Source: Acidobacteriota bacterium
GTDB taxonomy: Bacteria > Acidobacteriota > UBA6911
Assembly (NCBI GenBank): GCA_963664705.1
Contig: OY761556.1
Span: forward strand, 1,632,001-1,696,000
DNA length: 64,000 bases
Reading direction: 5' to 3'
Part shown: positions 21,232 to 43,658 of the stretch, piece by piece
Layout: every line of letters begins with the position of its first letter
Numbering within the stretch: position 1 is the first letter of the stretch
The notes under the pieces: generated by a model
What the model saw: the letters and a program-made list of their open reading frames with translations, nothing else
The model's database searches: none
What the model was told of the DNA's origin: nothing
Position numbers and translations under genes: made by a program

Positions 21232-21813
21232 CCCGACTAAATTGGGCGGATAAAAGAATATCTTCTGATTTTCCACAAACTTGACGAAAAGCTTAATGTG
21301 GCAATGCAATTGCATGTCAGCCCTGAGGTTTGAGCCGTTCTGCAACCAAGGCTTGGGATTATCGTTAAGCATGAATGATAGCATTTGGGTTGGAGATGGA
21401 CGCCCGTTGCCTGATCCGATCTTTGGGTACTTGCCTGCTACCGGGGTTTTTTCTCGCCTGAGTCGGACGCCTTCCCGGAGGCAAATGATCGTGTTCGCGC
21501 ATAGAAATCTTTGCATCGGCGGCTCCGCCAAACCCTTTAGGGCCTGCCTGGTTTTTGGTTGAAGGTTTTTCCGGGATCCGCCGGCCGCTCCCAACAGATT
21601 TAAGCCTGGAGTCCATTGTTCAGGAAAATATGATGAAGCATCGATCAATATTGACAATATTTAGCTTTCTTGCCAATAATAAGCCGCGGGGAATCAGGGC
21701 CTGCAACAGGCCTCAGTACTTTCCACGGATATGGTTTCGTCTAATTCCCCAGTTCCTACGGATGGATTGTTCTTCAACTACAAACGAGAATAGCATTTCT
21801 AGGATTCCCAGGT

Positions 21814-23271
21814 ATGTATTCTGAATCACAAATCGGCAATTTTGCAATGCGGACGGCTAAGTCCTTTAGGGCCAATAGCGTCCGAAATCTGTTTATTTTC
21901 ATTCTACTTGTCGGTTGTGCGGCGGCGAATCTTTTTGCCGGCAAACACCCGGTTCCTCTCGCGGCGGATATCGATGCAGCCAAGTGTATCGAATGCCACG
22001 AGAACAAGACGAAGGAAAAGTCCATTCACACCGCGGTCAAAGGCGGCTGTTTTTCCTGCCACGAGGTGCGTGTTCGAGGTGAGGTCACACGCGTCAACCT
22101 GACAACGACAACGATTCTCCCGCTTTGCCTGAAATGCCACACGGACAAGACAGCAGCTCCCGGGCAGGGACTGTTGCATCCCCCGGTGGCAAAGGATTGT
22201 ACCATGTGCCATGATCCGCACGATTCTCCGAACAAGGATCATCTGGTAAAGACGCTTTCGGGCGACAGCAAAGAGAACCTTTGCCTCCGGTGCCATAACA
22301 AAGGATTAGATGTCTCGGCCAACGGGAGCCGGCATGCGCCCCTCGACATGGGATGCGATACCTGCCACGTTATTCACAAAAAAGGTGTGCGCGGAAATCC
22401 GGAATCCAATCTGCATCTGAGCGCCGATCCGCACACATTATGTGTCGGCTGCCATGATGTGAAAAACGAGTCGCTGGTCAAGGCGCACCAGGGGCAGCCT
22501 TTTGAAAAAGCGGATTGCCTGGCCTGTCATGCGGTGCATCAGTCCGATGGACCCAAGCTGATCCAGAAATATGCCCATACTCCGTATGCGAGCAAATCGT
22601 GCGATGCCTGTCACCAGGCGCCGAAGGACGGAAAAGTAGTCCTGACCAAAGCGGATTCCAAAGCGCTTTGCCTTGACTGCCATGCGGATACCAACAACAA
22701 GATCCAGGGTGCGAAGGTGCAGCATGCAGGGGCAATGGGCGAGTGTGTGGATTGTCACGATCCGCATGCATCCAGGAAGCCCGGATATGTACGTCCAGAC
22801 CCGGTAAGTGCGTGTCTCAAGTGCCACAGCGCTCAGTCCAAGCTTCAAAGCACCAAGACGATTCTGCACAAGGCTGCTTTCAGGGACGGGTGTGCCACCT
22901 GTCATGAGCCGCATGGTGGGAGTCGCCCAAAGCTGCTTCGTGCCGATACCAACGAATTATGCCTGTCCTGCCACGGCACCAATGTAAAGCCGCAGAAGGT
23001 GGAAGGCCAGAAACTGGTCTCCATTTTTGGCGGCGCGGTCCGGCTTCCGGAAAACTATTTCGATTCGGTGCCTCGCGTAGCATTGAAATGGGGCCTGGGG
23101 CATCCGATTGACAAGCACCCGGTTGGAGACTATGCGGATCCGCTGGATCCCAAAAAAGAGAGGAAGCTTTCCTGCCTGTCGTGCCATCAGGCGCACGCCG
23201 GCAATGCCAAGGCGATGCTGATTACGGATCAGCCGCAATCGCTGTCATTCTGCAGCCAATGTCACAAGTGA
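21814..23271 (+). CDS. 16-heme cytochrome c (paired-CxxCH type), exported
   Basis: 16 CxxCH motifs counted; signal peptide; true start may be the downstream ATG. Confidence 0.92.
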   Translation: MYSESQIGNFAMRTAKSFRANSVRNLFIFILLVGCAAANLFAGKHPVPLAADIDAAKCIECHENKTKEKSIHTAVKGGCFSCHEVRVRGEVTRVNLTTTTILPLCLKCHTDKTAAPGQGLLHPPVAKDCTMCHDPHDSPNKDHLVKTLSGDSKENLCLRCHNKGLDVSANGSRHAPLDMGCDTCHVIHKKGVRGNPESNLHLSADPHTLCVGCHDVKNESLVKAHQGQPFEKADCLACHAVHQSDGPKLIQKYAHTPYASKSCDACHQAPKDGKVVLTKADSKALCLDCHADTNNKIQGAKVQHAGAMGECVDCHDPHASRKPGYVRPDPVSACLKCHSAQSKLQSTKTILHKAAFRDGCATCHEPHGGSRPKLLRADTNELCLSCHGTNVKPQKVEGQKLVSIFGGAVRLPENYFDSVPRVALKWGLGHPIDKHPVGDYADPLDPKKERKLSCLSCHQAHAGNAKAMLITDQPQSLSFCSQCHK

Positions 23272-23293: not shown

Positions 23294-24661
23294 ATGACGC
23301 GACAAATGGATCAGGCCGATAAGGTCATGGTAAGTGAAGGCAGACATAGAGATATGGGTATCCAGAAGGTGGGAGGAGCAAACAAGATGTCGGCAGTTCG
23401 GAACAACTCGGTTTCTTGCCGGATTACGCGCCGGACACTGTTAACCGTACTGATGATTGCGCTGGCCCTCATCACGACGTATTCGCTGTTCGCCAAGGGA
23501 GAAAAGAAAAAGAAGAGCCCCAAGGAAGATGAATCAACCGCCGCATCGCTGGATAACCGGAAGCTTTGGGAAAGTCTTGATCTCTCCAAGTTTGTCTGGC
23601 CGAATCCGCCGGCAATTACCCGGATCCGGTATTTGAACTATTGGTCCGGCGAAAAGTTCGTCGAGAAAAAGCAGGCAAAAAAGGCCAGCTGGATGGAGCG
23701 CGTTTCGGGAATTGCCACCGGCTCTACTCCCAGCGATGCAAAGGTTCGTTGGCAATTGATTTCTCCGAATGGGATCGCGGTGGATTCCAAAAACCTCGTC
23801 TATATTGCCGACAGTAAAGTTCGGGCCATATTCATCGTTAACATTGAGACCGGCGAATATTCGATGATCAAGAACGGTTCCAATGCCAAATTCCAGTGGC
23901 TCATTGGCCTGGCAATTGATGACACCGACCGGTTGTTTGCGGCCGACAGCGCCCTTCGACATGTGGCTGTTTTTGATAAGGACCATAAGTATGAAGGGTC
24001 GATTTCCGAAGGTCTCTATGCACCCGGGGGCGTTGCTGTCGACAACGAAAACCGTTTGCTCTACGTCACCGATGCGGAACAGGACCTGGTGCTTGTATAC
24101 GATGCCGATCCGCCGTTCAAGCTCATCCGGAAGCTAGGCAAGGCCGGAACGGAGCACACCTCGACTTTGCCGGGCGAATTTGCCAAGCCGGTGGGCGTGG
24201 CGGTGGACCAGGACGGAAATGTGTATATATCCGACACCTGGAATAACCGGGTCGAGGTCTTTAACGCCGATGGTACGTTCATAAGAACGTTCGGCGAAGC
24301 AGGGGATGGCCCGGGGTATTTCGCGCGGCCCAAGGGCATTTCCATTGATGGAGATGGCCATGTCTGGGTTGCTGATGGCATGCAGGACCGTGTCCAGGTG
24401 TTTACGCCTGATGGGCGGCTGCTGATTTACATGGGAGAGCATGGTTTGCTGCCGGGTCAATTTCAGAGCCTCACCAATGTGATGGTTGACAAAAAAAACC
24501 GAGTCTTTACCACGGAGCTGTATCCGGGCCGGTTACAGGCGTTTCAGTATTACACGAATTCTGAAGCAAAGGCAGAACTGGATCGACGCAATGCGGAGAG
24601 CAAGAAGAAGGCGGATCAACTGAAGCCGGGATCTTCATCCACTCCCGCGCCGAAAAATTAG
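23294..24661 (+). CDS. NHL-repeat beta-propeller with N-terminal membrane anchor/signal
   Basis: P.GIAVD, FAKPVGVAVD, FARPKGISID repeats; WPNPP...RI.Y N-terminal motif; start uncertain. Confidence 0.9.
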   Translation: MTRQMDQADKVMVSEGRHRDMGIQKVGGANKMSAVRNNSVSCRITRRTLLTVLMIALALITTYSLFAKGEKKKKSPKEDESTAASLDNRKLWESLDLSKFVWPNPPAITRIRYLNYWSGEKFVEKKQAKKASWMERVSGIATGSTPSDAKVRWQLISPNGIAVDSKNLVYIADSKVRAIFIVNIETGEYSMIKNGSNAKFQWLIGLAIDDTDRLFAADSALRHVAVFDKDHKYEGSISEGLYAPGGVAVDNENRLLYVTDAEQDLVLVYDADPPFKLIRKLGKAGTEHTSTLPGEFAKPVGVAVDQDGNVYISDTWNNRVEVFNADGTFIRTFGEAGDGPGYFARPKGISIDGDGHVWVADGMQDRVQVFTPDGRLLIYMGEHGLLPGQFQSLTNVMVDKKNRVFTTELYPGRLQAFQYYTNSEAKAELDRRNAESKKKADQLKPGSSSTPAPKN

Positions 24662-24799: not shown

Positions 24800-25861
24800 A
24801 TGAAGAAAATTATGATTTTCGCCCTCGCCGTGTTGGTTTGCACCAGCGTGGCCATGGCCCAGTCGTATGTCCGTGGTACCGGTATCACGGGTATCGACAA
24901 ATTAGGCGCTCACCAGAACGGTGGACGCGGTTGCGTTGGATGCCACGCCCCGCACAGCGGAGTCCGCGGCAACGGCGGTGCTCTCACCGCGAGTTCCGTT
25001 CTTACGTCCACGGCCAACACACACAATGCCACTGGTTCTCAGTATTCCTGGTCGAACCAGTCCACAATCAAAGGCGATGTTGGTGATGAAACGCTGTGGG
25101 GACAGGATATCGGTCCCATCGTCACAATGACCATCCGTACGGGTGCGGATGGTGGCTTTGCTGCGGACCTGTCGACGTCGGCAACAAGAGAGCGCGTCAA
25201 AACCGGTATCGTTTATTGCCTCAGCTGCCATGACGGCAACGTGGCCAAGGGTGCCATGATGACGAACCAGTCTTTCGAGCAGAGCGCGGGGCTTTTGCCT
25301 TCGAGCTACGGCTCTCAGCCGATCCCGACCCTGTTGGGCGCGGATGGCGGCTCCGGCGGCAACTATGAGAACGATCATCCGATCGGGCCGAACGCCAAAC
25401 TCAGCCTCCTCGGCACATCCTCGGTTTCAAAGTACGTGGACCTCGACAACGCCAGCAACCCGACCAAGCTGATCCTGAAGTCCAGCCAGCCGGATGCCCT
25501 GTATACAACGTTTCAATCCAATTATGGCTTGCCGACGATTACCGGAGCTCGCGCAGGTGCCGGTTTTGCGGTGGAAAAGGGCATGACAACCGCGGGTGAT
25601 GCATATGTAGTCTGCACAACCTGCCATACGCCGCACAGCATGTACACGGCATCCGCCAGCGGCACGAATCCTATCGGCGGCTTGACCTCCGGTACTTTCC
25701 CCAGCTACTTCTTCATCGCGGCTCCCTACAACCCGGGCGCAAACACTGCCAACGGAACGAAGGCCTCATCCGCCACTCAGTTCTGCCGTCAGTGCCACTT
25801 CACGGGTGCAGGTGGTTCGAACGAAGGAAGCAATATCCTGACTATTCAGACCGCTTTCTAG
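24800..25861 (+). CDS. Tetraheme cytochrome c, enlarged OmcE-like (candidate filament subunit)
   Basis: Strong RBS CAGGAGG and signal peptide. Motif order H..CVGCHAPH..LW..CLSCHDG..NDHPIG..CTTCHTPH..FF..CRQCH. Confidence 0.75.
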   Translation: MKKIMIFALAVLVCTSVAMAQSYVRGTGITGIDKLGAHQNGGRGCVGCHAPHSGVRGNGGALTASSVLTSTANTHNATGSQYSWSNQSTIKGDVGDETLWGQDIGPIVTMTIRTGADGGFAADLSTSATRERVKTGIVYCLSCHDGNVAKGAMMTNQSFEQSAGLLPSSYGSQPIPTLLGADGGSGGNYENDHPIGPNAKLSLLGTSSVSKYVDLDNASNPTKLILKSSQPDALYTTFQSNYGLPTITGARAGAGFAVEKGMTTAGDAYVVCTTCHTPHSMYTASASGTNPIGGLTSGTFPSYFFIAAPYNPGANTANGTKASSATQFCRQCHFTGAGGSNEGSNILTIQTAF

Positions 25862-25873: not shown

Positions 25874-25898
25874 AGGGGGGGGAGTATTCCTCCCCCCT
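25874..25898 (+). terminator. GC hairpin immediately after the tetraheme gene (internal terminator or stabiliser)
   Basis: AGGGGGGGGAGTATTCCTCCCCCCT. Confidence 0.6.
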
Positions 25899-25927
25899 AA
25901 TCTGGTTATCGTTTGTTGAGAGGATTT

Positions 25928-26941
25928 ATGAATTTCCGGTTGTGCGCGATTGCTGCGGGCCTGCTCTACAGTTCCATGGCCTTTGGGCAGTCGCCGTTGG
26001 CTTCGGCACACACTTCCACTACCAGCAAAGCGGCCGCAAGTACTGAAAGCGAAGCGACAAAGCCGGCCGTGCGAGTCAATGGCTCTGTGTTGACGGAAGC
26101 CGATGTGATTCGCGAAATGTATACGATTTTTCCCTACGCGCGCCAACACGGCGGTTTTCCGAAGGCAATGGAAGGGGATATTCGGAAGGGCGCCATCGAA
26201 ATGATTGTTTTTGAGGAATTGGTTTACCAGGAAGCCAAAAGGTTGAAGGTTCCTATTGCACCGGAACGGTTGAGCCGCGCGGAGGCGGAGTTTATCCAGC
26301 AGCTTGGTTCCAGCGCCTATGAGCAGTTTTTGCGCACGGAATGCCAGGGCTCCAAGACGGTATTGCGTGAGAAAATCCGGCGTTCATTGCTGATCGAGAA
26401 GATGCTGCGAACTGAGGTCGAACAGAAGTCGATCGTTACCCCTGTTGCGGCCAAAGCCTATTATGACAAGAATCCAAAGCAATTCGAAAAATCGGAGAGT
26501 TTGCGGATTCAGACGATTTCGATCATCCCGCCCCAGCGTGGTACAGATTTGGACAAGGAGGCGCGCCGGCGCGCTGATGAAGCTTTCAAACTGGCTCAGG
26601 CGGCAAAAAGCTATCAGGACTTCGGACTTCTCGCGGAGAAGGTGTCGGATGATGATTGGCACGTAAGCATGGGCGACCGCAAGTTGGTTGAGGCATCGAA
26701 ACTTCCTCCTCCGGTTGTACAAGCGGCAGCAGAAATGAAACCGGGCGAGGTCAGCAAACTGATTCAGCTGGGAAACGCCTATACCATTTTCCGCCTGGTT
26801 GAGCATCAGCCTGCCGGACTAACGCCGTTTGAAAAAGTGAAGGCACAATTGCAGTCAGATCTGCAAAAACAAAGGCGCGTGGATCTGCGTGCGGCACTGA
26901 ATAAGAAGCTGCGGGAGAACGCAAAAGTTGAAGTGTTTTAA
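25928..26941 (+). CDS. SurA/PrsA-like chaperone with parvulin (PpiC) domain
   Basis: Signal peptide, VRVNG..LTE, L.YQEA, F..LAEK.SDD, MKPGEVS.LI, PFEKVK. Confidence 0.85.
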   Translation: MNFRLCAIAAGLLYSSMAFGQSPLASAHTSTTSKAAASTESEATKPAVRVNGSVLTEADVIREMYTIFPYARQHGGFPKAMEGDIRKGAIEMIVFEELVYQEAKRLKVPIAPERLSRAEAEFIQQLGSSAYEQFLRTECQGSKTVLREKIRRSLLIEKMLRTEVEQKSIVTPVAAKAYYDKNPKQFEKSESLRIQTISIIPPQRGTDLDKEARRRADEAFKLAQAAKSYQDFGLLAEKVSDDDWHVSMGDRKLVEASKLPPPVVQAAAEMKPGEVSKLIQLGNAYTIFRLVEHQPAGLTPFEKVKAQLQSDLQKQRRVDLRAALNKKLRENAKVEVF

Positions 26942-26948
26942 GATTGCA

Positions 26949-28781
26949 ATGATTGACCCAAAGACAAAATCAGGCAGAATTCCCACGGCAATTGCGATAT
27001 GCCTTTTGCTCTCGTTTGCGGCAGCGGCAAATGCGCAGACAACGGTCGGGGATAATCTCCACATGACCATGAATGGAAGCCTGGGCGCCAGCTACGAAGG
27101 CAGCTATGGGGATTCCATCGGCTCCAACCATGGCCTCGGCTTTGGGGTAAATGGCGATTTGAACGGCTATTATTTTGATCCCAATTTTCTCAATTTTCGC
27201 GTGCGCCCCTATTATGACCGGATACAATCCAATGCGGAGTCGCAGTCGGTCACGCGCGGTACCGGCATCGAGGGTTCGGTGGGCGTGTTTGGTGGCAGCC
27301 ATTTCCCTGGATCGATTTCCTATGGAAAAGATTTCAGCCGAAACAGCGAATTCCGCTTTGCCGGCGTCCCTTCGGTCCTGGGAAATTCAACCGGAAGCAA
27401 CATCGACATTGCCTGGAGTGCATTGTTTGAAAATCGGCCCACGCTTCATGCCAACTATCTGATTGCTGATTCCACCGCAACGCTGCTTGGCACGGAAAGC
27501 CAAAGCAAGAGTTCCTCCCGCAGCCTGAGCCTGAATTCTGATTACAAGGCCGGCGGGTTCAGCCTTCATGGCATCCTGAACCATTACAACACGGAATTTG
27601 TATCTCCAAGCTTTGTGACCGGGGAAACGATCGGCAACTCTTCATCAAGCACGAATTACGGAGCAACCGCTGTGCGCCGGTTGCCGCTATCGGGGAGTCT
27701 TGCCCTGGGATGGTCTCGTTCCACCTCGGAAAATGGAGCCAGCGATTCTTCAAACAATTCCTACTCGGCATCGGCGATCTTTTCGCCCTGGGAGCGATTG
27801 GTCATCAGTCAGAGCTGGAACTATACAACCAACGTGATTGCCGCGCTGGCAGAGAGCCTTGGCGGAGACGTCAATTCCGCAATCTTCGGATCCAAGGACG
27901 GCTGGAGCGCGATGTACATGAGCACCACGGGAACGCTCATGTTGGGCAATGGCCTCACGGTCTCCGGCCACTTGAACCATCGGATTCAGCATTTTGATGG
28001 TAGCAATCTGGGCGATACGCAGTACGGCGGCAACGTAACCTTCCGCCGGGCCAGTCATCTTTTCGGTTTTCTACACTTCTCCGTCGGCATCGTAGACACG
28101 GCAACCAAAGAAGGAAATACCGGCATTGGGCTTGTGGGAGATCTCAGTATGACGCGAAAATTTGGCCGTTGGGACACTGCGGCTGATTTCAGTTTTTCGC
28201 AGGATACGCAAACGCTCTATTCCGTCGCTACCACAAACAATTATGGTTTTGGTGGCTCACTCCGGCGCAAAATCAACTCGTCAACATACTGGAGCGGCAG
28301 TTACAGGGAAACGCGCAGTGGATTGACTACGCAGGACGGCAACAACAACCGGTCCAAGGGAGTCGCGACCAGCTTTTCCTGGAGCCGATTCGCTTTCGCC
28401 GGCAACTACTCACGATCGAGCGGTGCCGCGGTATTGTTGGTTGACGGTTCGCTAACCGCAACTCCGGTTGGTTCCATTATCAGCGATTATTTTCTGACTT
28501 TTAATGCCCGCAGCATCGGCATAAACTCTAGGACGAGGTTGCTTCGTGTGCTTAGCCTGTTCGGTGGCTATACGAAGGTTTCCAGCAACAGCACGCAGAA
28601 TGAATTGGGCACGTTTAACAACGGCAAGCGCTTCAATGCCCGTCTCGAATTGAGGATGCGGCGCTTGAACATCTTTGCCGGATACGATCGCGCGGTTCAG
28701 GACTCCAGTGCAGTACCAGGTGGACCGAAAGTGGTTAACTCCTATTATGTGAGTCTATCAAGATGGTTCAACGTGTTTTAA
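26949..28781 (+). CDS. Outer-membrane beta-barrel protein
   Basis: Signal peptide; Ser/Gly/Tyr-rich amphipathic strands; GYYFDPNF motif; C-terminal YVSLSRWFNVF ending in Phe; no CxxCH. Confidence 0.75.
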   Translation: MIDPKTKSGRIPTAIAICLLLSFAAAANAQTTVGDNLHMTMNGSLGASYEGSYGDSIGSNHGLGFGVNGDLNGYYFDPNFLNFRVRPYYDRIQSNAESQSVTRGTGIEGSVGVFGGSHFPGSISYGKDFSRNSEFRFAGVPSVLGNSTGSNIDIAWSALFENRPTLHANYLIADSTATLLGTESQSKSSSRSLSLNSDYKAGGFSLHGILNHYNTEFVSPSFVTGETIGNSSSSTNYGATAVRRLPLSGSLALGWSRSTSENGASDSSNNSYSASAIFSPWERLVISQSWNYTTNVIAALAESLGGDVNSAIFGSKDGWSAMYMSTTGTLMLGNGLTVSGHLNHRIQHFDGSNLGDTQYGGNVTFRRASHLFGFLHFSVGIVDTATKEGNTGIGLVGDLSMTRKFGRWDTAADFSFSQDTQTLYSVATTNNYGFGGSLRRKINSSTYWSGSYRETRSGLTTQDGNNNRSKGVATSFSWSRFAFAGNYSRSSGAAVLLVDGSLTATPVGSIISDYFLTFNARSIGINSRTRLLRVLSLFGGYTKVSSNSTQNELGTFNNGKRFNARLELRMRRLNIFAGYDRAVQDSSAVPGGPKVVNSYYVSLSRWFNVF

Positions 28782-29854
28782 TCCGGGCGCGCGGCGTATG
28801 GATCGCTCTGCTGCTGGGTATTCTTGTACTTCCTTTCTCCTCTGCATTTGCCTTTAAGCAATCGAAGACCCCGGCGGAAAAGCCCTGGCCTGAACTCCTT
28901 CTTGAGGCCGGACGGAAGCTGAGCTACCAGCAATCGATCAAATCCGAACGGGATGTGGGCGGGAAGCAGGGTTTCTGGTCCAAGTTTGCGAATATTGTGG
29001 CGGGTGCGCCCGAGTTCCGTGAAATGGTGCGTCCGTATGGAATCGCGGTCGATTCCCATGGCCGTGTGATCGTTACCGATCCAGCCATTGCTTCTGTGCA
29101 TATTTTCGATTTTGCGGGGCGCAAGTATAAGCTGATCGATCGGTGGGAAAAAAACCGGGACCCGATGGTCGCGCCTCAATGCGTGGCTGTGGATGAGAAG
29201 GACAACATTTATGTGACGGACTCGGAAGCGGGCAAAATATTTGTTTTCGATCCGCAGGGCAAGACGCGCAAAGTTTTTGGCAGCCTGAAACGGGGTGAAG
29301 GCTTTTTCAAGCGGCCCACGGGCATTGCCATCGATAGGGAGACGCATCGTGTCTACGTGACCGATACGCTGTCTGATCGAGTTTACATTCTTGATGCCGA
29401 GGGGACGGTACTGCGCAGCTTTGGCCAACGCGGCGGGGAAAGAGGCGAATTCAACTTTCCGGTCGAAGTGCAGGTGAAGGATGGTGTGGTCGCGGTGGTC
29501 GATGCCATGAATTTCCGCGTCCAGTTATTTGATCGTGATGGCAACTTCCAGGCTCAGATTGGAACCAGCGGTGATCCGGCCGGCGGTATCTACCGCCCCA
29601 GAGGCGTCGGGATCGACTCAGAAAATCATATTTACATTGTGGACAGCGAGTGGGGAATGGTGCAGGTATTTGATCTCAGAGGTCGCCTGCTTTACCGTTT
29701 CGGGAATGGCACCAACTTTGGCCAGTTCCTGCTCCCCGCCGGATTGTTCATAGATCGGAATGATCGCGTTTACCTGGTGGACTCCTACAATCGTCGAGTG
29801 CAGGTCTTCCAGTATCGTGCCATTCAGCGATCCACGACTGGAGTGCCGCAATGA
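28763..29854 (+). CDS. NHL-repeat beta-propeller, exported
   Basis: RPYGIAVD, FKRPTGIAID, GEFNFP, RPRGVGID, GQFLLPAG.FID, DSYNRRVQVF. Confidence 0.9.
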   Translation: MVQRVLIRARGVWIALLLGILVLPFSSAFAFKQSKTPAEKPWPELLLEAGRKLSYQQSIKSERDVGGKQGFWSKFANIVAGAPEFREMVRPYGIAVDSHGRVIVTDPAIASVHIFDFAGRKYKLIDRWEKNRDPMVAPQCVAVDEKDNIYVTDSEAGKIFVFDPQGKTRKVFGSLKRGEGFFKRPTGIAIDRETHRVYVTDTLSDRVYILDAEGTVLRSFGQRGGERGEFNFPVEVQVKDGVVAVVDAMNFRVQLFDRDGNFQAQIGTSGDPAGGIYRPRGVGIDSENHIYIVDSEWGMVQVFDLRGRLLYRFGNGTNFGQFLLPAGLFIDRNDRVYLVDSYNRRVQVFQYRAIQRSTTGVPQ

Positions 29855-31716
29855 CCTGGACACGCATGGTGCCGGCCGGAGCGCTCGCCTGTGTGCTGCT
29901 GTTTGCGGCACTCGCGGGAGCTCAAACCAATCCTTCTCCGACGACCGATGTGCTGGGAGTGCATGATCTGAGTTCGGGGAGTTCTCCCCTGCATGGGCCG
30001 AATGCCAACGCCTGTATCTACTGTCACGCTCCGCATAATGCCCTATCTTCACCCGGACTCTGGAACCAGACGCTTTCGACGAGCGAGTATGTTCTGTTCC
30101 CGGATTCAACCAGCGCCCCCTCCGCTCCGACCAAGGTCGGGACTGCGAGTATGCGCTGTCTAAGCTGCCATGATGGCAGCGTAGGTGTTGGGCACACGGT
30201 GGCTATTGGTTCGCTGCAAATGACGGGAACGCTGCGCTCGAATCTGGGGACAAAGCTGGCTGGCTCGCATCCCTTCAGCATGCAGCCGCAGCTGAAGGAC
30301 CATGCCTCGCTTGCGGCAGGCCTGGTCGCCTCGCACAGCACCAAAGACAAAGCGGTTATTCTGGTAGAGAACAACATAGAATGTCCTACCTGCCATGATG
30401 TCCACAATCAATACAAAGATCTGAATTCTCCTAAATTCCTGGCTCGCGACAACACTGGGAGTCGTTTGTGTTTTGCATGCCATGATGTGGGCGCCCGCAC
30501 GGTAGGTGGAGTCAATAATTCGCTTACGGCCTGGCCCAATAGCGCCCATGCGCAGTCGTCTGTTGCAGTGGCGCGGAAAGCAGGTTTGGGCGGATACGCG
30601 ACGGTGAAGGAATTCGGCTGTTCCAGTTGCCATAGATCGCATGACGCGCTGGGCACGGCACTGCTGCGTAAGAATCCGGATGCACCCGCGAATATTGACG
30701 AGACCGCGCAGGCCTGTTTTACCTGCCATGACGGCAGCGATAACCTGTCTCAGCCGCTCCTCAATGTGATCGAGGCGTTCAACGGGCAGCGCGGGCATCC
30801 GTTCTCGGATTCAAACAATGTGCACGGGATGAATGAACCGGTTGTCCTGGATCGGAATCGACATGCCACGTGCGCGGATTGTCACAATCCCCATGCTTCG
30901 CAGGCGACAGTATCCTTTTCGGCCAAGCCGGATCTGCGGCCATCCCAGGCTGGAGTAGCCGGTCTGACAAAGGATGGCGCGGTGGTTGCCAATGCAACCT
31001 ATCAATATGAGAACTGCCTGCGATGTCACGGCACCAGCCAGAATAAGCAGAGCCTTGCTGTTTATGGCTACATGCCGGCGCGCGCTCTTTTTTCGGGAGA
31101 TACGCTGGATATATCTCGCGAGTTTGCACGGGGTGCCACTTCATCTCACCCCGTAATGCGTGAGGCTGGAAATCTGGCCCGCCCCAGCCTGCTCAAGGCG
31201 TCGAGAAGCATCGGTTCCAGGGTCAGGGTTCGAGGCCGGCTTATCAATTCGCGGATTCTTTGCACTGACTGTCACAATAACGACAATGCCCGCGAGGCTG
31301 GCGGCACTGGGCCCAATGGGCCCCACGGATCCAAATACGATCACATCCTGGAACGCCAGTATTTAATGAGCCAGGTTGGGACCGGTTCGGCTCCCGGCAG
31401 CATGATTGTGAATCTCAATCCGAAGCCCATTTTGAGCTCGGCTCCTGCATCGCCGTATGCACTGTGCGCCAAGTGTCACGATCTGGATTACGTCAATTCC
31501 GGTCAGAGTTGGAGTGAGCATGGCCGGCATATTCAGAAGGGGTTTTCCTGCTCCGTGTGCCACAGTGCGCATGGCGTACCGGCGGGAACAGCGAGCGTCA
31601 GCGGCAGTGGCCTGGTGAGCTTCGATATGAATGTCGTGGGAAGCAATAACGGTCTGCCGGTTTCCTACAACGGGTCGTCTTGCACATTGAGATGCCACGA
31701 GAAGTCCCATAAATGA
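29851..31716 (+). CDS. 12-heme cytochrome c with OmcE-like N-terminal tetraheme domain
   Basis: 11 CxxCH + CTLRCH. N-terminus HDL..CIYCHAPH..LWN..CLSCHDG..GT.L..SHPF..CPTCHDVH..FL.R.N..S.LCFACH. Confidence 0.88.
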   Translation: MTWTRMVPAGALACVLLFAALAGAQTNPSPTTDVLGVHDLSSGSSPLHGPNANACIYCHAPHNALSSPGLWNQTLSTSEYVLFPDSTSAPSAPTKVGTASMRCLSCHDGSVGVGHTVAIGSLQMTGTLRSNLGTKLAGSHPFSMQPQLKDHASLAAGLVASHSTKDKAVILVENNIECPTCHDVHNQYKDLNSPKFLARDNTGSRLCFACHDVGARTVGGVNNSLTAWPNSAHAQSSVAVARKAGLGGYATVKEFGCSSCHRSHDALGTALLRKNPDAPANIDETAQACFTCHDGSDNLSQPLLNVIEAFNGQRGHPFSDSNNVHGMNEPVVLDRNRHATCADCHNPHASQATVSFSAKPDLRPSQAGVAGLTKDGAVVANATYQYENCLRCHGTSQNKQSLAVYGYMPARALFSGDTLDISREFARGATSSHPVMREAGNLARPSLLKASRSIGSRVRVRGRLINSRILCTDCHNNDNAREAGGTGPNGPHGSKYDHILERQYLMSQVGTGSAPGSMIVNLNPKPILSSAPASPYALCAKCHDLDYVNSGQSWSEHGRHIQKGFSCSVCHSAHGVPAGTASVSGSGLVSFDMNVVGSNNGLPVSYNGSSCTLRCHEKSHK

Positions 31717-32465: not shown

Positions 32466-32559
32466 CGCGCGCAAGTGCCCTGTATAGGCTTTGCGGTCGA
32501 GAGTACAATTTGGTAAAGCGGAATTTGTTTGCGCGGCCGCCCGCGGAGGAGGGAGCACT

Positions 32560-33918
32560 ATGCGATCATTGATAAGGGTCGGATCGATCCTGTGCATTAC
32601 AGTTGGGCTGGAAATGCTGATGATGGGCAACGCCGCAGATCGCAAGCCGAGCAAGCCCAAGACTGTCCCCCAGCAGTTCTGGCAGACCTCCACCTGCAGA
32701 GGATGCCACGATGAAATCGTCGAACAACACCTGGCGTCCTCCCATGAGATGTCTTTCACTAATCCCGCATTCCAGGCTCAATATAGAAAGGACCTGCTGC
32801 CCAAAGCCGGGACAGATCCGCAACTGAATGCGGATGCGCGCGAATGTATTGCCTGCCATGAACCGATCGCCTATGCCACAAATGGCCCAAAGTCGGTGTC
32901 ACTCCTGGAAATCGACCCGAAAATGAATGGAGTGACATGCGATGTCTGTCACACCATGACCGGATTCCGCGATGGCAAGGCGCAAAACGGCAACTATATC
33001 CTGGAGCCGGGCGACAGAAAGTTTGGTCCCTTTAAGGGACCGGGAGATTGGCACCATATTTATTCAGAACTCCAGACCAAAAGCGAAATTTGCGCCGTCT
33101 GCCATGAAGCGGTCAACCGGTACGGGCTCAGGATCAAATCTACTTTTGCGGAATGGCAGGAGAGCACCTTTGCCCAACAAGGGGTGCAATGCCAAGATTG
33201 CCATATGAACGTTGACGGATTCCTTACGGCAGGAAAACCCCGGTTCGCTTCCGGCAAAGCGGCAGCCATGACTCTTGGAAGCGCTCCGCAGCGGGACCGG
33301 CTGTATACGCACCAGTTTCCCGGTGCTCATTCCAAGACGCAAATCGAGGGCGCTATCACTCTGGATATTGAAGCGGATGCCCGCAACAGCCAACCGGATC
33401 ATGCGCTTGCTCTGAGCGTCACGGTCGATAACTCGCGCACGGGACACAGCATGCCATCCGGCAGCGCGGATCTCCGGTTGCTGTGGATGGAGGTGGTGGT
33501 ACGGATCGGGAACGACCCTGGAAAGCCTGCCGTCATCATAGATCCCGAGGGACAGGACGAATCGAAGGCGTACTCTCTCGCAGGGCGCGGGAAGTTTGAT
33601 TCCATGCTTCTGGGATCGGAGGTTCCGAAGGGAAGCCGCATCTATCGCGCCATTTTCACTGATGGTACCGGGCAAGCTACGCTCGATTCATACACGGCCG
33701 TGGCCAAGCTGTTCGATAACCGGTTGAAAGCTGCGGAGAAGCGTAAGGAATCCTACCGATTTGCCGTGCCGGAAGGAGCAAAGGGGGATATTACGGTCAA
33801 AGCAACGCTGAAGTATCTGCCCTATTCCAGCATATTCACTCGGCGATTTGGGTTGCCTCTCCCTGAGGCAGTCATCGTCGCGCAGCGGGAGATTCATTTG
33901 GCTGCACAGGACCGCTGA
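32560..33918 (+). CDS. Pentaheme cytochrome c (c554-like N-terminus) with beta-sandwich C-terminus
   Basis: CRGCH, CIACH, CDVCH, CAVCH, CQDCHM; H.FPG; GHSMPSG..DLR..W; RBS GGAGG before ATG 32560. Confidence 0.85.
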   Translation: MRSLIRVGSILCITVGLEMLMMGNAADRKPSKPKTVPQQFWQTSTCRGCHDEIVEQHLASSHEMSFTNPAFQAQYRKDLLPKAGTDPQLNADARECIACHEPIAYATNGPKSVSLLEIDPKMNGVTCDVCHTMTGFRDGKAQNGNYILEPGDRKFGPFKGPGDWHHIYSELQTKSEICAVCHEAVNRYGLRIKSTFAEWQESTFAQQGVQCQDCHMNVDGFLTAGKPRFASGKAAAMTLGSAPQRDRLYTHQFPGAHSKTQIEGAITLDIEADARNSQPDHALALSVTVDNSRTGHSMPSGSADLRLLWMEVVVRIGNDPGKPAVIIDPEGQDESKAYSLAGRGKFDSMLLGSEVPKGSRIYRAIFTDGTGQATLDSYTAVAKLFDNRLKAAEKRKESYRFAVPEGAKGDITVKATLKYLPYSSIFTRRFGLPLPEAVIVAQREIHLAAQDR

Positions 33919-33989
33919 CGGGGCGCCTCGCTGGATGCACCGGCGTTCCGGCTAATGCCACATACGATTTGTCGAGAGTGAAGCCCATG

Positions 33990-34059
33990 GGAGTGCGGTG
34001 GCTTGCTACCGCACTCGGCGTTTATAATTTTCAAAGGCGGCGGCAAGCTGCCGCGCTCC
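33990..34059. repeat. REP/REPIN-like palindromic element, family A, copy 2
   Basis: GGAGTGCGGTGGCTTGCTACCGC...TTTATAATTTTCAAAGGCGGCGGCAAGCTGCCGCGCTCC. Confidence 0.7.
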
Positions 34060-34312
34060 ATGGCGCCCATTCGGGGGCGCCTTTTTTATCCCATCGCCCG
34101 GCAGCAAAATGAGCCAAAAAAATCTTTGTGGTCTTCGAGGTCTTCGAGGTTAATGGGGTTACCAATTCGCTCAAGTCAGGTTCGAAGACGCCGGCGCTCC
34201 CAGTGAGCCCCGGCATCATTCCGCATCGAGCCGAAGAGCTTCTTTACCTAACCCGCAAAATTCACTAAAGCAGGACTTGGTTGTTCAAAACCAGGTCGGC
34301 AGTTCGCTTCAC

Positions 34313-35707
34313 TTACATGTCGTGACACTTTTGGCAGGTCGCCTCTTTATTGTTGGTCAGCAATTTGGGCCCCGTCGAAGTCGAATGAGAGGCATGACAG
34401 GTGATGCAATTTAGCTCTGCCTTATCCGCCGTTGCAGCCACCCAAACGGGGTGTCTCGAGGTCGGATGCCCCAGTCTCTCATTGATAAGATTCAGTACCA
34501 CCAGTTTTTCAAATGACTTTGGGGGGACGCTGACTTTGCCGTCGAAGAGAGGATAGGGCTCACTGCTTCGAAACATCCTGGCGCCGTTCGAACCGTGGCA
34601 GGCAAGACAAAGATCCGTCACAGGTGCATATAGCTCCGTGGGGTTGTCCGAAGCGTGCGCATCGTGGCAGAAGGCGCACGATTGATTAACAGGCTCATGA
34701 ACATACTTGCCTGTGAGTTCAAATCGGGACAGCTTTGCAAAGGTCTTGGGAGGGAGGCTTACAAGACCGTTGAACAGAGGAAATGGTTGGCTGCTCTGAA
34801 CGATCTTCTCGGCGTTGGGACCATGGCAATTCATACAGATATCCCGCAACGAGACCCGCAGTTCCTTGGGAAAATCCGAGGCATGTGCATCGTGACAGAT
34901 AAGGCAGGATTTTTTTGCAGGCTCGTGTACATATTTTGAAGACAGTTTCAGATATTCCATCTTTGAGGATTCATTGTCCGTCGAAGGCTTGCCGGCTTTT
35001 GTCGTCTGCTTGGGCTGTTCAACGTGACAACCCAGGCAAAGATCCTGGGCAGGTTTTTTCAGGTGATATTCCTGGTTGGCGGCATGAGGGTCGTGACATT
35101 CCATGCAGGAGTGATCGCTCTGCGATAAAAGCTTATGCCGGCTTCCAGCGCCCGCCATTTTTGCCTTGAATTGGGTATGGCATTCATAGCAGAGCGAGTC
35201 CACCGTTGCCGCCGTCAGTCCAACCTTTCCGTTTACCGAGGCCGGGTGGCAGGCTGCGCATAAGCGCGCGGCGTAAGGACCATGCGAGTATTGGAGCAAC
35301 AGCTTTGGTTTGTCGGAAGAATGAGGATCGTGGCAGCCGGTACACCTCGATTTTCCAAGCGGCTGATTGTCATGGGCGGGAGAAAGATTTTTGCCCGCAG
35401 AATGGCATTCCATACAGAGTTCGGGCTCTTTTGCTTTCAGATAAAACTCGGGCGGCTCTTTCAGATTGGCCGGAGTAAGGCGGTTGCAGTCCAGGTGGCA
35501 GGCAACACAACCGCTTTTTTCGATTGCCGGCTCTCTGTATTTTTTCAGAGGCTCGATACTTTTAGGATCCTGGTATTTGGAGCAGCCATCCTTGATCGCG
35601 GCGTCCTGCAGAGAGCCTGCGTGTGCGGATTCAAAACAAGCCAGGATGATCAGGATACGTGCGGATTGCCTGACTAAACTCCAAGATCTGTGGACATCCA
35701 TTTTCAT
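34313..35707 (-). CDS. 13-heme cytochrome c, paralog of 21814-23271
   Basis: 13 CxxCH; signal peptide; shared H..QP..K..C..CH, H.PYA, LF.G.V.LP, GHP..HPV blocks. Confidence 0.9.
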   Translation of the reverse strand: MKMDVHRSWSLVRQSARILIILACFESAHAGSLQDAAIKDGCSKYQDPKSIEPLKKYREPAIEKSGCVACHLDCNRLTPANLKEPPEFYLKAKEPELCMECHSAGKNLSPAHDNQPLGKSRCTGCHDPHSSDKPKLLLQYSHGPYAARLCAACHPASVNGKVGLTAATVDSLCYECHTQFKAKMAGAGSRHKLLSQSDHSCMECHDPHAANQEYHLKKPAQDLCLGCHVEQPKQTTKAGKPSTDNESSKMEYLKLSSKYVHEPAKKSCLICHDAHASDFPKELRVSLRDICMNCHGPNAEKIVQSSQPFPLFNGLVSLPPKTFAKLSRFELTGKYVHEPVNQSCAFCHDAHASDNPTELYAPVTDLCLACHGSNGARMFRSSEPYPLFDGKVSVPPKSFEKLVVLNLINERLGHPTSRHPVWVAATADKAELNCITCHASHSTSTGPKLLTNNKEATCQKCHDM

Positions 35708-35773
35708 AATTTACATCCGCATATTTGACGGAATTGAGTTTGAGCCCTGCGTACAGACGGCATGCACGGCCTT

Positions 35774-37078
35774 TTACTGTTTTCCCGTTTTTGCTGATTG
35801 GCGGTCGTATTTCTGAACCGCATGGCAACCCGGTGCACAACTGCCTCCGGTATCGCTCTTCTCGAATTTTATCGGTAGCTTCCATGTTCCAAACGGTACC
35901 GTGGTTCCAATAAGCTGAGGAGTTGCACTGGCGTGAACCTCATGACACGAACGGCAAGTTCTGCCATGAGACGTTCGGTTGACATGAACAAAATGAAGAT
36001 TGCGGTCGCCGTCACGGAACTGGGTTGCGCTTGTCGTATGCTCTTCCGTTGCCAGAGGCGTCTCGTGACAGCGGAAGCAAAGATCATAATTTGAAATGAA
36101 GAACGGTGCGTAAAAGTTCTGTGTGTATTGATCGGTCAGCAGTCGAAAGTAGGGCGAGCCATGCGGGTTGTGGCAAGCCGAACAATTCCTGTTTTGAATC
36201 GGACCGTGCTGGTTCGGGTTTGCCGCCAGCAGTTGTTTCATATCCGCGAATTCCTGGGTTTCCGTTTTCACCGGCTTGTCGTGGCACTTAAGGCAGATAT
36301 TGAGTCCGTCGGCAAGCAACAGGTTGTTTTCCTGCGCTGCATGTGGATCGTGGCAGTTCATGCAGGCTGCATCTTCCTTGACCGGCGAATGCTTTACCAC
36401 CGCCGTCTGCTGATCGCGGAGTGTCTTTTCGTGACATTTTCCGCAAAGCCCGGGGAATGGTGCGGTCAGCATATATCGCTGATCGGACATGTGAGGAGAA
36501 TGACAATCCAGGCAGTCGGTGGAGGCTGCTTTATGCTTGAATCTCGCATTGGTGAACCGCGCCCCCATGTCTTTATGACATTCCATGCACATTTGCTGGC
36601 CGGCAACCCGAAGCATCCCCGGATTGTTGCCGCCGTGGGGATCGTGGCAGGTAATGCAAGCTCCGGCAGCAAATGGTCCATGAACATAGCTGCCTTTGAA
36701 CTGGTCCTTTTTATGACACTTGAAACAAAGCGGTTCCTTTGCTTCCACAAGGCGGGAAGGTCCTCCGTCCGGCGGGACCTGGTGACAGAAATCGCAAAGG
36801 TCCTCTTTTGCCAGCAGGCAATTTACTTTGGATGACACTACGCGCTGATGGCACTGCGTGCAGCCCTTTCCCCCCAACGGATCGTGTGGCTTGGTCGCCG
36901 GAATCGGTTTCGCAGGAGGCTTCTGCTCCTGGGCAGGAAGCGAACCGGACGATCCCAGCAGTCCAAGCAAAAAAACAGAAAGTACCAACGAGCCTGCCAT
37001 CCAGAGGTTGATATGCCGGGCGCGGCAGGAACCACGATTCGACTTCGGCTTGAATCTTAATAACGAGAAATTTTGCAT
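35774..37078 (-). CDS. 13-heme cytochrome c
   Basis: 12 CxxCH + CAPGCH; F..G..NLH..HV and GGSC..CH C-terminus. Confidence 0.9.
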   Translation of the reverse strand: MQNFSLLRFKPKSNRGSCRARHINLWMAGSLVLSVFLLGLLGSSGSLPAQEQKPPAKPIPATKPHDPLGGKGCTQCHQRVVSSKVNCLLAKEDLCDFCHQVPPDGGPSRLVEAKEPLCFKCHKKDQFKGSYVHGPFAAGACITCHDPHGGNNPGMLRVAGQQMCMECHKDMGARFTNARFKHKAASTDCLDCHSPHMSDQRYMLTAPFPGLCGKCHEKTLRDQQTAVVKHSPVKEDAACMNCHDPHAAQENNLLLADGLNICLKCHDKPVKTETQEFADMKQLLAANPNQHGPIQNRNCSACHNPHGSPYFRLLTDQYTQNFYAPFFISNYDLCFRCHETPLATEEHTTSATQFRDGDRNLHFVHVNRTSHGRTCRSCHEVHASATPQLIGTTVPFGTWKLPIKFEKSDTGGSCAPGCHAVQKYDRQSAKTGKQ

Positions 37079-37165
37079 AGCAAAAATGACTGGATCAAAT
37101 ACTGCTCATATCATGACTAAATCACACAAAAACCTGGCCGATTTGTCCCGGGCTCAACGAAATTT

Positions 37166-38548
37166 CTATTGAGCATTGAGTTTCACCGGGTTGACACGGT
37201 CATAGGAATATTCACCATGGCATTCCGCAAGGCAGCTTCCTCCGGTCTTGGTTTTATTAAATCGGAACGAAGCCGTCCAGTTTCCAAACTGCCCTTTATC
37301 GAGAATAAGGTTGGGCTGGTTTCCGGCATGCGCTCCGTGGCAAGCCCGGCATGTCTGGCCACTTTTTTCCTTATTTACATGAAGGTAATGCAGATTGAGC
37401 CGACCGTTGCGAAAATCCGTATCTCTGTTTGTGTAATGCTCCCCCGCGATCCTCTCGGTATGGCATGAAAAGCACACGGCATATCTGGCCGGGTCGTAGG
37501 GCAGAGAAGTATCGGTCGGATAATCCGCAAACAGCAGGTTCGCATATTTTGAACCGTGAGGGATGTGGCATGAGTTACAGCTTTTGTCCGCCACCGGCCG
37601 ATGCTTGTATTTTGCCGCATCAATCTGAGCCTGGAATTTGTCATGGCATGTAACACAAAGTTCGTTCGCCGGTTTGCTGAGCAGGCGGCCATTTTTGTTG
37701 TCATGCGCTTTGTGACACTCGACGCAGGCCATTCCCTTGGTCATTGCTTCGTGCTTGAACTGGCTGGATTCCAGATTTTCTTTTATCTCTTTATGACATC
37801 CATCCAGACACAGTTCGCGCGGGGATCGGGTCAGCAACCCGGGAATACTGGAATCATGGGAGCGGTGGCACTTGGAACAATCCTCGCCGGTCAGGTGCAG
37901 CTTCTGCTCCCTGCCTCCCACAATGACAGGGCGCATTTTTTCGTGACACTGCTGGAGGCAAAGCTTGCTTCCCGTCGCGTCGAGCAGATTCTTGGCCTTG
38001 TTGCCATGGGGCCGATGGCAGGCCAGGCAATCGCCGCGGGCAGCCGGTTTATGGACATATTTTTTTGTAATCACCGGCTTTTTGTTATGGCACTCATTGC
38101 ATAGCAAGGATGCGGGCGTCTTGCGGACCTGGTACTTTTCTTCAGAGCCGTGGGGATCGTGGCACCCAAGGCACTTACCTTTTGCAACCGGGTCGTGCAG
38201 CATGTATCCCTTGGTATCCACACGCTTGTGGCATTGCAGACAGAGATTTGCTTCAGTTGCCACGATCTTGAATTTGTGGTCTGTACCCGGGAGCGGCAGA
38301 TGGCAAACGGTACATTGTCCAATCTGCAGCGGTCCATGAAGATATTTGTGCTTTATTACTGCGGGATGGCATTCTGCCGAGACACAGCTTTTAGTGGGAT
38401 CGGAGTGCTTTTGTTCTTTGGCGTGGGTCATGCCGGGCGCACAAAAGCCTCCAACCAGCAGGAAAAGCAGAACTCTAATGGCGCACAGCATTCTGCCGGG
38501 TGCAAGCCGTCCACCGTTTTCGCGAAATCCCCTATGCTTTTCCAACAC
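37166..38548 (-). CDS. Up to 15-heme cytochrome c, paralog of 35774-37078
   Basis: 11 CxxCH + CVSAECH, CLQQCH, CLDGCH, CLAECH. Confidence 0.9.
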   Translation of the reverse strand: MLEKHRGFRENGGRLAPGRMLCAIRVLLFLLVGGFCAPGMTHAKEQKHSDPTKSCVSAECHPAVIKHKYLHGPLQIGQCTVCHLPLPGTDHKFKIVATEANLCLQCHKRVDTKGYMLHDPVAKGKCLGCHDPHGSEEKYQVRKTPASLLCNECHNKKPVITKKYVHKPAARGDCLACHRPHGNKAKNLLDATGSKLCLQQCHEKMRPVIVGGREQKLHLTGEDCSKCHRSHDSSIPGLLTRSPRELCLDGCHKEIKENLESSQFKHEAMTKGMACVECHKAHDNKNGRLLSKPANELCVTCHDKFQAQIDAAKYKHRPVADKSCNSCHIPHGSKYANLLFADYPTDTSLPYDPARYAVCFSCHTERIAGEHYTNRDTDFRNGRLNLHYLHVNKEKSGQTCRACHGAHAGNQPNLILDKGQFGNWTASFRFNKTKTGGSCLAECHGEYSYDRVNPVKLNAQ

Positions 38549-38560
38549 GAAAGCCGTTCC

Positions 38561-42629: not shown

Positions 42630-43658
42630 ATGAGAGATCGGCTAACGGAAGACAATGAGAATCCCCCTCGGCGATTCTCTTACGGTTCAGGATGGGCTTT
42701 GAGCCTGAAGGTCTTGCTTGCCTTCGTCCTGGCTTGTGGCGTCATCGCCGGGTTTTATAACTTTATTAAGTCAACATATATCGACCGACGGATTTCACGG
42801 TTTGTTCCGCATACATGGGTAAATCTTGAAGAGCGGGATAAGGCTGCGCCGGAAGTGACCGATCCTGTGGAGAGCGCGGTATTCAGAGTTGCGATCGCTC
42901 CCATGGTTTCGCCTGAAAAGTCGCACGAAATGTACCAGGGCCTTATCGACTACGTTGCAGAGAAACTGGGGCGAAAGCCTGTGTCACTTTACAGGCCGAC
43001 ATATTCGGAAACCAACGACCTTGTCCGCTATCAAAGGTGCGATATTGCAGTTGTCTGTACCTATCCCTTTATCCGGGGTGAGCGCGAATTCGGGATGCAG
43101 GCGCTGGTGGTACCCCAAATAAAGGGGGAGACCACGTACCAGTCTTTTATCATTGTGCCTCAATCCAGCCCGGCCAGGTCGCTGTCGGATCTTCGGGGGA
43201 TGCGATTTGCCGCCGCGGACATCGTTTCGACAACAGGTTGGCTATTTCCCGCCATGAGCATCATGAGCGCGGGGGAAAATCCAAATCACTATTTCGGGAA
43301 TCTGGTGCTTACCGGCAGTCATGACAAGTCGATTCAAGCGGTCCTGGATGGATTTGTTGACGGCGCCGCCGTTCATGGAATCGTCTATGATCAAATGCTT
43401 GCCGATAATCCTTCAATTCCGAAGAAGATAAAGATAATCAGCAAATCCCCTCCTTTTGGCATCCCTCCGGTTGTGGCACACCCGGGGATGGATCCAAATC
43501 TCAAGAAGGCAGTCGTTTCGATACTTCTGGATATGCACAATAATGAGCGTGGCAGAAAGATATTGAATACGCTTCAGATAGAAAGATTCGTTGTCCCCGA
43601 AAGGGGGCTCTTTGGCGACCTCCGGCAGGCAATCGGAAAGCTGGAAGGATGGAAGTGA
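42630..43658 (+). CDS. PhnD-like (phosphate/phosphite/phosphonate-type) substrate-binding protein, membrane anchored
   Basis: TY.E..DL, YQS.IIV, S.TGWLFP, GSHDKSIQAV, VDGAAV, SPPFGIPP. Confidence 0.85.
   Translation: MRDRLTEDNENPPRRFSYGSGWALSLKVLLAFVLACGVIAGFYNFIKSTYIDRRISRFVPHTWVNLEERDKAAPEVTDPVESAVFRVAIAPMVSPEKSHEMYQGLIDYVAEKLGRKPVSLYRPTYSETNDLVRYQRCDIAVVCTYPFIRGEREFGMQALVVPQIKGETTYQSFIIVPQSSPARSLSDLRGMRFAAADIVSTTGWLFPAMSIMSAGENPNHYFGNLVLTGSHDKSIQAVLDGFVDGAAVHGIVYDQMLADNPSIPKKIKIISKSPPFGIPPVVAHPGMDPNLKKAVVSILLDMHNNERGRKILNTLQIERFVVPERGLFGDLRQAIGKLEGWK

Follow-up and report, generated by a model that had tools for sequence, protein, structure and literature searches.

How a cytochrome nanowire starts, stops and passes its electrons to an acceptor is posed as an open question in a study of OmcE filaments [PMC13712944], and the same question is raised by a locus in a 64,000-nucleotide stretch of an Acidobacteriota bacterium genome (GTDB lineage Bacteria; Acidobacteriota; UBA6911; GenBank assembly GCA_963664705.1, contig OY761556.1, positions 1,632,001 to 1,696,000 of the forward strand), hereafter the window. 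One gene of this locus (Table 1) encodes a 12-heme cytochrome c, Q, in which an OmcE-like domain (QN) is fused to an 8-heme domain (QC), and a neighboring gene encodes a tetraheme cytochrome, T4; the first and second NHL propellers of the locus are termed NHL1 and NHL2. A sequence-only reading of this DNA had proposed that T4 and Q form a major/minor subunit pair, in which Q primes or caps a filament and wires it to periplasmic cytochromes. We hypothesize that Q is the minor, end-capping subunit of a cytochrome filament, whichever position it occupies, and assign this a probability of roughly 0.68.

Eleven CxxCH motifs are present in Q, at residues 55, 103, 178, 207, 257, 289, 341, 389, 471, 539 and 567, and CTLRCH, a CX3CH motif at residue 611, provides the twelfth heme site, whereas 2000 shuffles of the protein gave a mean of 0.057 and a maximum of 3 CxxCH motifs. 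All motifs named in the sequence-only reading are found in the translation, including the seven further CxxCH and the terminal CX3CH that it placed behind the OmcE-like part. A phmmer search of Q against the PDB returned a single match, OmcE (7TFS; E 2.8e-14), over residues 30–211, and a family profile built from 70 homologs matched only 9YUQ (E 2.6e-23) and 7TFS (E 9.8e-21), at profile positions 13–211, with OmcS absent from the PDB matches at E 0.001. The T4 family profile matched only 9YUQ, weakly and in pieces (E 1.3e-6). Scored against a reference hidden Markov model (HMM) built from other genomes' stand-alone OmcE-like proteins (17 sequences), QN reached a median of 110 bits, T4 of 38 and hemes 5–8 of Q of 21 (n=60 each), and the multiheme proteins of the same genome other than Q and T4 reached at most 23 bits per stretch. 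The first ~210 residues of Q are hence more OmcE-canonical than T4, as had been claimed. Judged by these scores, the OmcE likeness of QN exceeds a generic paired-CxxCH pattern, and the likeness to solved filaments is limited to the QN part of Q.

QN has the four CxxCH and four conserved other histidines of an OmcE-type domain, is similar over its full length to solved OmcE and, as in the definition used in PMC13712944, is accompanied by genes for beta-propellers and a large beta-barrel, the barrel fold being predicted from sequence. Q as a whole, with 12 hemes and 15 conserved non-motif histidines, departs from the four hemes and eight histidines of a stand-alone OmcE subunit. Three tandem OmcE repeats in Q were ruled out, as hemes 5–8 and 9–12 match only short paired-CxxCH units; a search of the Atlas with QC gave nothing beyond generic paired-CxxCH clusters. 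AlphaFold2 models made without hemes were poor (mean predicted local distance difference test (pLDDT) 44 for Q and 59.5 for T4), and Foldseek found nothing for either protein at E 0.001, a blank that, with such models, is uninformative on the folds. In a wide structural search, 7TFS was the top match of the heme-free Q model (Z 2.5, root-mean-square deviation 3.6 over 64 residues) and the only one of 48,161 chains to reach Z ≥2 with T4 (Z 2.0, deviation 4.4 over 136 residues); for models of this quality, both Z values are too low to count as superposition.

In OmcS and OmcE, one heme takes its histidine from the adjacent subunit [PMC9473688; PMC12954529; PMC13712944], and in OmcS it is the penultimate heme that does so [PMC6584659]. 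T4 has exactly eight conserved histidines (in 82–84 of 84 rows), the number of a stand-alone four-heme subunit, and Q has 15 non-motif histidines for 12 hemes, each in at least 193 of 201 aligned rows. In QN these are His38, His62, His140 and His185 (199–201 of 201 rows), and QC contains His264, His325, His338, His557 and His560, the last two of which precede the last heme pair (195 and 199 of 201 rows). The donor histidine of such subunits would be the one three residues past the first CxxCH; in Q this is His62, a column with histidine in 199 of the 201 rows. By this pattern, His62 would face outward, His264 would shut the third heme of QN in cis, and His557 and His560 would shut the last pair. 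Because its surplus conserved histidines would close its own hemes, Q would be a donor without an open heme, i.e. a cap. His325 (30823–30825) and His338 (30862–30864), present in 193 and 195 of the 201 rows, exceed the ligands needed for 12 hemes; both occur at this position in only 2 of 8 free 8-heme proteins inspected and are possibly a metal site or ligands for partner hemes. The idea that the 16-heme cytochrome encoded upstream caps the other end via an open heme is unsupported: it has 17 histidines for 16 hemes, and both histidines before its last heme pair are invariant (52/52).

A complex of Q and T4 was predicted from residues 25–354 of Q, four hemes and mature T4, together with three controls. 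The pair scored 0.84, the best control 0.00, and it passed a mark that 116 of 157 solved complexes and 2 of 215 mismatched pairs had attained. At least 78% of the contacts were shared between runs, and the partner pLDDT was at least 72. In the model, residues 30–70 of Q contact Cys275 (heme 3) and residues 311–352 of T4, among them Cys329 (heme 4), and His62 lies beside Asp192/His193 of T4. The N-terminal face of QN is thus predicted to dock head to tail onto the last two T4 hemes, with the polarity expected from the histidine count, and at the level of a model the result supports an OmcE-type acceptor end on T4 despite its divergence.

The two genes differ in their apparent expression. T4 has a strong ribosome-binding site, and in 99% of 69 loci the 50 bases past its stop codon have a folding energy below -15 kcal/mol (0–42% for the other six genes). 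Codon bias is stronger in T4 than in Q in 67 of 69 loci, and the start of Q overlaps the stop of NHL2 in 75 of 80. These features suggest that T4 is a high-copy and Q a low-copy protein and make T4 the likely major filament subunit; together with the predicted head-to-tail complex, they support the proposed subunit pair.

A scan of one genome per species gave at least 601 stretches encoding a Q relative among the 628 pattern matches listed, and 79 of the best 80 of these records are titled Acidobacteriota. The gene order in the window is 16-heme cytochrome, NHL1, T4, SurA-like peptidyl-prolyl isomerase (PPIase), barrel, NHL2 and Q. Among those of the best 80 loci with long enough flank, NHL2 (77/77), the barrel (76/76), the PPIase (73/73) and T4 (72/72) always lie upstream of Q, so that Q and T4 occur together wherever this could be seen, and the 16-heme gene and NHL1 do so in 52 of 68 and 53 of 70 loci, respectively. 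T4, PPIase, barrel, NHL2 and Q form a fixed core, and the 16-heme gene and NHL1 a movable module. The invariance of the T4–barrel–Q core fits a role of the barrel as export pore for T4. NHL1 as a dedicated T4 chaperone was also considered, and this is weakened by the finding that NHL1 travels with the 16-heme gene and not with T4.

Where Q would be located can be approached through amino acid composition. The median fraction of lysine plus arginine (K+R) is 0.035 for T4, 0.048 for QN and 0.056–0.059 for QC in its fused forms, compared with 0.131 for the 16-heme protein and 0.11–0.16 for the propellers and the PPIase; the barrel has a low charge, like T4 and fused Q. In composition, the two halves of QC resemble T4 more closely than they do the 16-heme protein (30 and 28 of 30 loci). 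This low-charge, filament-like character of fused QC argues against a QC hanging in the periplasm, and its position leans extracellular. The end-capping part of the sequence-only proposal is retained, whereas the wiring to periplasmic cytochromes is so far unsupported, as fused QC resembles T4 and the barrel in charge. Amino acid synthesis cost failed to separate the proteins.

According to PMC13712944, a porin route is favored for OmcE export, and PMC10954620 assumes that OmcS filaments begin in the periplasm. In the mechanism that we propose, T4 would polymerize like OmcE, with every subunit donating one histidine to the open heme of its neighbor. Q would donate His62 to T4, and His264 would close its own equivalent heme in cis and His557/His560 its far end, so that nothing could add beyond it. 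Partnered by NHL2, Q would be loaded first at the barrel and present the first free histidine; subsequently, T4 subunits would join from the periplasm, and the eight extra hemes of Q would finish at the distal tip, where QC could hand electrons to minerals, humic matter or other cells. The 16-heme cytochrome would feed the base of the filament. If the filament grows at its base and Q lies outside, Q would be the first subunit and end as the tip. That Q is an initiator pushed out in this way is a tentative proposal, held at somewhat less than even odds, and we rate it likelier than a periplasmic anchor because the composition of Q is filament-like.

Several points weigh against this interpretation. 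The OmcE likeness of T4 is weak in both sequence (E 1.3e-6) and structure (Z 2.0), so the T4 filament is an assumption, and the passing complex may reflect likeness to the solved OmcE filament and not binding; the job also contained four hemes for the ten CxxCH of the construct, a setup that differs from the calibration. The assignment of histidines to hemes rests on patterns known from OmcS and small tetraheme cytochromes and on the complex model. Composition is a soft clue: QC of this window has a K+R of 0.099, and free QC proteins, at 0.12, are near MtrA-like proteins (0.136). The pairwise identity of QC (0.52–0.60) falls between that of T4 (0.46) and the 16-heme protein (0.65). Furthermore, QN is dispensable, because seven clusters lack both QN and NHL2, and QN needs two changes on a domain tree, owing to the placement of T4 among the QN domains; the AU test leaves a single QN clade unrejected (p-AU 0.268) but does not establish it.

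If T4 does not polymerize, then T4, Q, the barrel and the 16-heme protein may form a finite porin–cytochrome conduit, in which T4, as a single copy or a few, contacts Q through an OmcE-type interface. T4 is ~50% longer than OmcE and only weakly similar to it, filaments are proven, as far as the accessible literature goes, only for the OmcE of Geobacter and Desulfuromonas, and a preprint on peat Acidobacteriota reads clusters of this phylum as conduits, the word 'nanowire' being absent from its main text [10.64898/2026.05.27.727921]. We nevertheless regard a finite conduit as rather unlikely, since T4 has the 4+4 histidine count of a self-polymerizing subunit and the sequence marks of far higher expression than its partners, and the cluster fits the published OmcE cluster inventory. 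A filament with Q at its other end is, in our judgment, also unlikely, and slightly more so. Q would then be the last-added terminator or anchor, as PapH is the terminator of chaperone–usher pili, with QN at or in the barrel and QC reaching the periplasmic 16-heme cytochrome, as in the wiring of the sequence-only proposal. By count, Q is a pure histidine donor without an open heme, in line with the reasoning behind the anchor of PMC13712944; coupling ties its gene to NHL2 and the barrel, and QN is compact and canonical, T4 having long insertions; against this, the filament-like composition of fused QC is unlike that of periplasmic proteins, and the 16-heme gene is less tightly linked than the T4–barrel–Q core.

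The filament-like composition of Q would equally suit a nucleator at the base, on the outer surface of the cell. Here, the 16-heme protein, which is MtrA-like, would fill the barrel as MtrA does MtrB, Q would sit outside like MtrC, and T4, secreted by another route, would grow outward from the free His62; the source genome has four secretin genes, and the clusters of the peat preprint are modeled as Mtr-like conduits [10.64898/2026.05.27.727921]. However, it is T4 and not the 16-heme gene that belongs to the invariant core with the barrel, and with a lipobox-like motif in 0 of 69 Q homologs nothing of this kind would hold Q at the surface, which makes such an arrangement improbable. Least of all do we expect Q to be an alternative building block, either as a self-polymer or as a 12-heme 'leaky' unit along the filament. 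Q does retain the N-terminal donor face, and its composition would be compatible with this, but its conserved histidines outnumber its hemes and leave no obvious open one, it carries low-expression marks, and hemes 5–12 are unlike OmcE. An end-capping Q remains the reading that we prefer.

The gene occurs in several natural states. When the phylum was sampled evenly, matches at E 1e-20 occurred in 38 of 301 Acidobacteriota genomes, related genomes not being independent; three same-genus and three same-family genomes that were sampled had none, so the cluster is patchy near the source genome. Forty stretches taken from the matching genomes contained fused Q (24), a split pair (5) or the 8-heme part alone (7), and four were uninformative. 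In 22 of the 24 fused-Q stretches, the stand-alone tetraheme lies upstream of the barrel, and the other two are cut by contig ends. In the split state (L101, L102, L107, L109, L115), a second tetraheme precedes an independent 8-heme gene, whose product appears to carry a signal peptide as well. The seven loci with only the 8-heme gene (L099, L100, L104, L108, L111, L112, L114) lack both NHL2 and QN; their proteins match QC more weakly (51–108 bits), and six come from one family. All free 8-heme proteins inspected have a histidine shortly before the first heme motif and a second one 2–3 residues past it, an arrangement that, read from sequence alone, is that of the N-terminal face of OmcE. Of 201 distant proteins of 520–700 aa carrying QC, 200 also have an OmcE-like domain, in a set found by fused queries and a length filter, which therefore gives no estimate of the frequency of unfused domains.

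HMMs from which the test proteins had been withheld classified 5/5 split tetrahemes and 14/14 fused domains as QN-type and 15/15 main tetrahemes as stand-alone type. A 52-domain tree separates the 19 stand-alone proteins from all other domains by one branch (99/93); T4 is placed within QN as a group on a long branch, and each QN lies apart from the tetraheme encoded at the same locus. A recent duplication of T4 within the cluster was ruled out by both analyses, which place QN as an old separate lineage; the held-out classification and the tree placement hence point to QN as a dedicated old paralog. Full-length relatives outside the Acidobacteriota, known from protein sequence, occur in Desulfuromonadia and Proteobacteria; the named sources are Desulfuromonas, Geobacter sp. 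AOG2, Geomonas oryzisoli, Oryzomonas sagensis and Malonomonas rubra, as well as Dissulfurirhabdus, Gammaproteobacteria and Rhodospirillales, and a search of plasmids gave no match. The fused homologs of L096–L098 have ten CxxCH, with the sixth motif of L096 widened to CX8CH. P0313, a 16-heme protein of 1400 aa, has four tandem OmcE-like domains (113–132 bits each) and resembles a covalent filament stretch.

Residues 30–211 of Q align over the whole subunit of OmcE from Geobacter sulfurreducens (7TFS) and Desulfuromonas soudanensis (9YUQ) [PMC13712944], with which QN shares four CxxCH and four other histidines. The OmcE cluster, as described in PMC13712944, contains the same kinds of genes, i.e. 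two multiheme cytochromes, two beta-propellers, a tetraheme and a large barrel. Unlike OmcE, Q has eight more hemes, surplus histidines and the marks of a minor subunit, and while the OmcE-cluster propellers are described as lipoproteins, those of the window have no evident lipobox in their translations. The OmcE survey in PMC13712944, a study from 2026, covers five phyla, Acidobacteriota not being among them; according to its authors, OmcE operons contain no tip candidate, and they offer only an anchor candidate outside the cluster. This protein, Dsoud_2415, likewise combines an OmcE-like domain with an extra histidine that leaves no heme open, but has four hemes and is encoded outside the cluster, whereas Q has twelve and lies in the operon in 72/72 informative loci. 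With twelve hemes, Q falls outside the anchor definition of that study (four hemes, nine histidines), and the ninth ligand for QN would come from the fused domain, as His264.

The 'porin-scaffold-cytochrome' cluster EET1 of peat Acidobacteriota (Terriglobales/UBA7540) contains a porin and cytochromes, is transcribed in peat and includes OmcE-like cytochromes among models of 8–13 hemes; it is presented as an Mtr-like conduit, and the accessible main text contains no proposal of a filament, cap or tip [10.64898/2026.05.27.727921]. By taxa and description, EET1 is probably the cluster studied here, and the preprint may already show Q as an 'OmcE-like' cytochrome. In the osc cluster, the OmcS subunit is likewise encoded with paralogs (OmcT, OscC), a barrel (OscEFG) and helpers [PMC13194489]; ligation by a histidine of the adjacent subunit would be shared, but the subunit family differs from Q. 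A fusion of an OmcE domain to an 8-heme domain was not found in the titles or opening abstract lines of papers matched by full-text searches, whose coverage leaves out most subscription papers, nor in the accessible text of PMC13194489, PMC11492766, PMC1829397, PMC12133095, PMC7399161 and PMC12977616. What is new is Q as a real and conserved variant protein of an OmcE-type system; the cluster type itself is already published.

Chaperone–usher pili have FimH as tip adhesin, FimF/G as adaptors and PapH as terminator. By analogy only, their operons likewise place the major subunit with its hairpin first, the pore in the middle and a minor end subunit last, and polar assembly from donor to acceptor would be common to both, with a beta-strand donated in pili and a histidine to a heme here. 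The same pili are invoked as a comparison in PMC13712944. It is conceivable, though we consider it doubtful, that OmcE nanowires are in general built like chaperone–usher pili, with histidine donation replacing strand donation, and that the Q family is their dedicated end module, QN serving as adaptor and QC as the eight-heme terminal contact. If so, Q would be the first tip or terminator to be identified in any cytochrome nanowire, such an end module, whether fused, split or reduced to QC, would lie inside the operon in hundreds of soil Acidobacteriota, and these abundant bacteria would be nanowire producers. As an in-operon candidate end subunit, Q comes with a specific residue (His62), a predicted polarity and forms that are fused, split or reduced in nature, and a cap module would offer engineered protein wires a means of setting their length and the chemistry of their ends.

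Table 1. Features of the Q locus, in window coordinates.
Feature	Position	Strand	Basis
Sigma-70-like promoter match (11/12), upstream of cluster	21651..21680	+	consensus match only
16-heme MtrA/DmsE-like cytochrome, below family cut-off	21814..23271	+	
NHL1, NHL beta-propeller	23294..24661	+	
T4, divergent OmcE-like tetraheme, 353 aa, likely major filament subunit	24800..25861	+	
Hairpin directly after T4 stop	25876..25898	+	
SurA/parvulin-type PPIase	25913..26941	+	
Likely large outer-membrane beta-barrel, 617 aa, no Pfam or NCBIfam family	26928..28781	+	
NHL2, NHL beta-propeller; stop overlaps Q start (ATGA)	28763..29854	+	
Q, 12-heme cytochrome c, 621 aa, OmcE-like domain fused to 8-heme domain	29851..31716	+	
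Likely Sec signal peptide of Q, residues 1-24	29851..29922	+	read by eye
QN, OmcE-like tetraheme domain, residues 30-211	29938..30483	+	sequence match, HMM, conserved His
His62 of Q (CxxCHxxH after heme 1), predicted ligand donated to T4	30034..30036	+	
QC, 8-heme domain, about residues 225-621	30523..31713	+	

The 16-heme protein scored 35 bits against TIGR03508 (MtrA/DmsE decaheme), below the cut-off of 192. A second T4-like tetraheme is encoded in 14 of the 80 loci (including L011, L019, L020, L024, L030, L032, L036, L045 and L068–L070), often on the opposite strand just past Q, and may provide alternative filament subunits. Five-heme OmcE-like or T4-like proteins are found near the clusters of L081, L082, L084, L085, L089, L090, L094, L096 and L097 and recall the 'leaky' five-heme family proposed in PMC13712944.

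Q is followed in the window by a block at 32491–40012, which encodes a 5-heme c554-like protein on the plus strand. Its minus-strand genes, which come next, encode a membrane cytochrome similar to NapC/NrfH plus three proteins of paired-CxxCH type with 11–13 CxxCH. The block is a plausible electron supply from quinol to the periplasm and, among the 80 loci, follows Q in L001 only. Adjoining this block, at 42630–45752, genes for a phosphonate-binding-like protein, a histidine kinase and a LuxR-type regulator lie in a row and possibly have a regulatory function. On the other side of the cluster, a 449-aa protein (17901–19250) probably has a signal peptide, contains four cysteine-rich repeats that are nearly identical and matches no Pfam family above cut-off, and a Gly-rich protein with a sorting-like C-terminal tail, read by eye, is followed by an exosortase-family gene (15160–17642). 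The source genome as a whole has 34 open reading frames with at least three CxxCH, including proteins of 43, 28 and 26 motifs, and multi-CxxCH regions are located at G000:C1 4817197–4820565 and 2504952–2509363.

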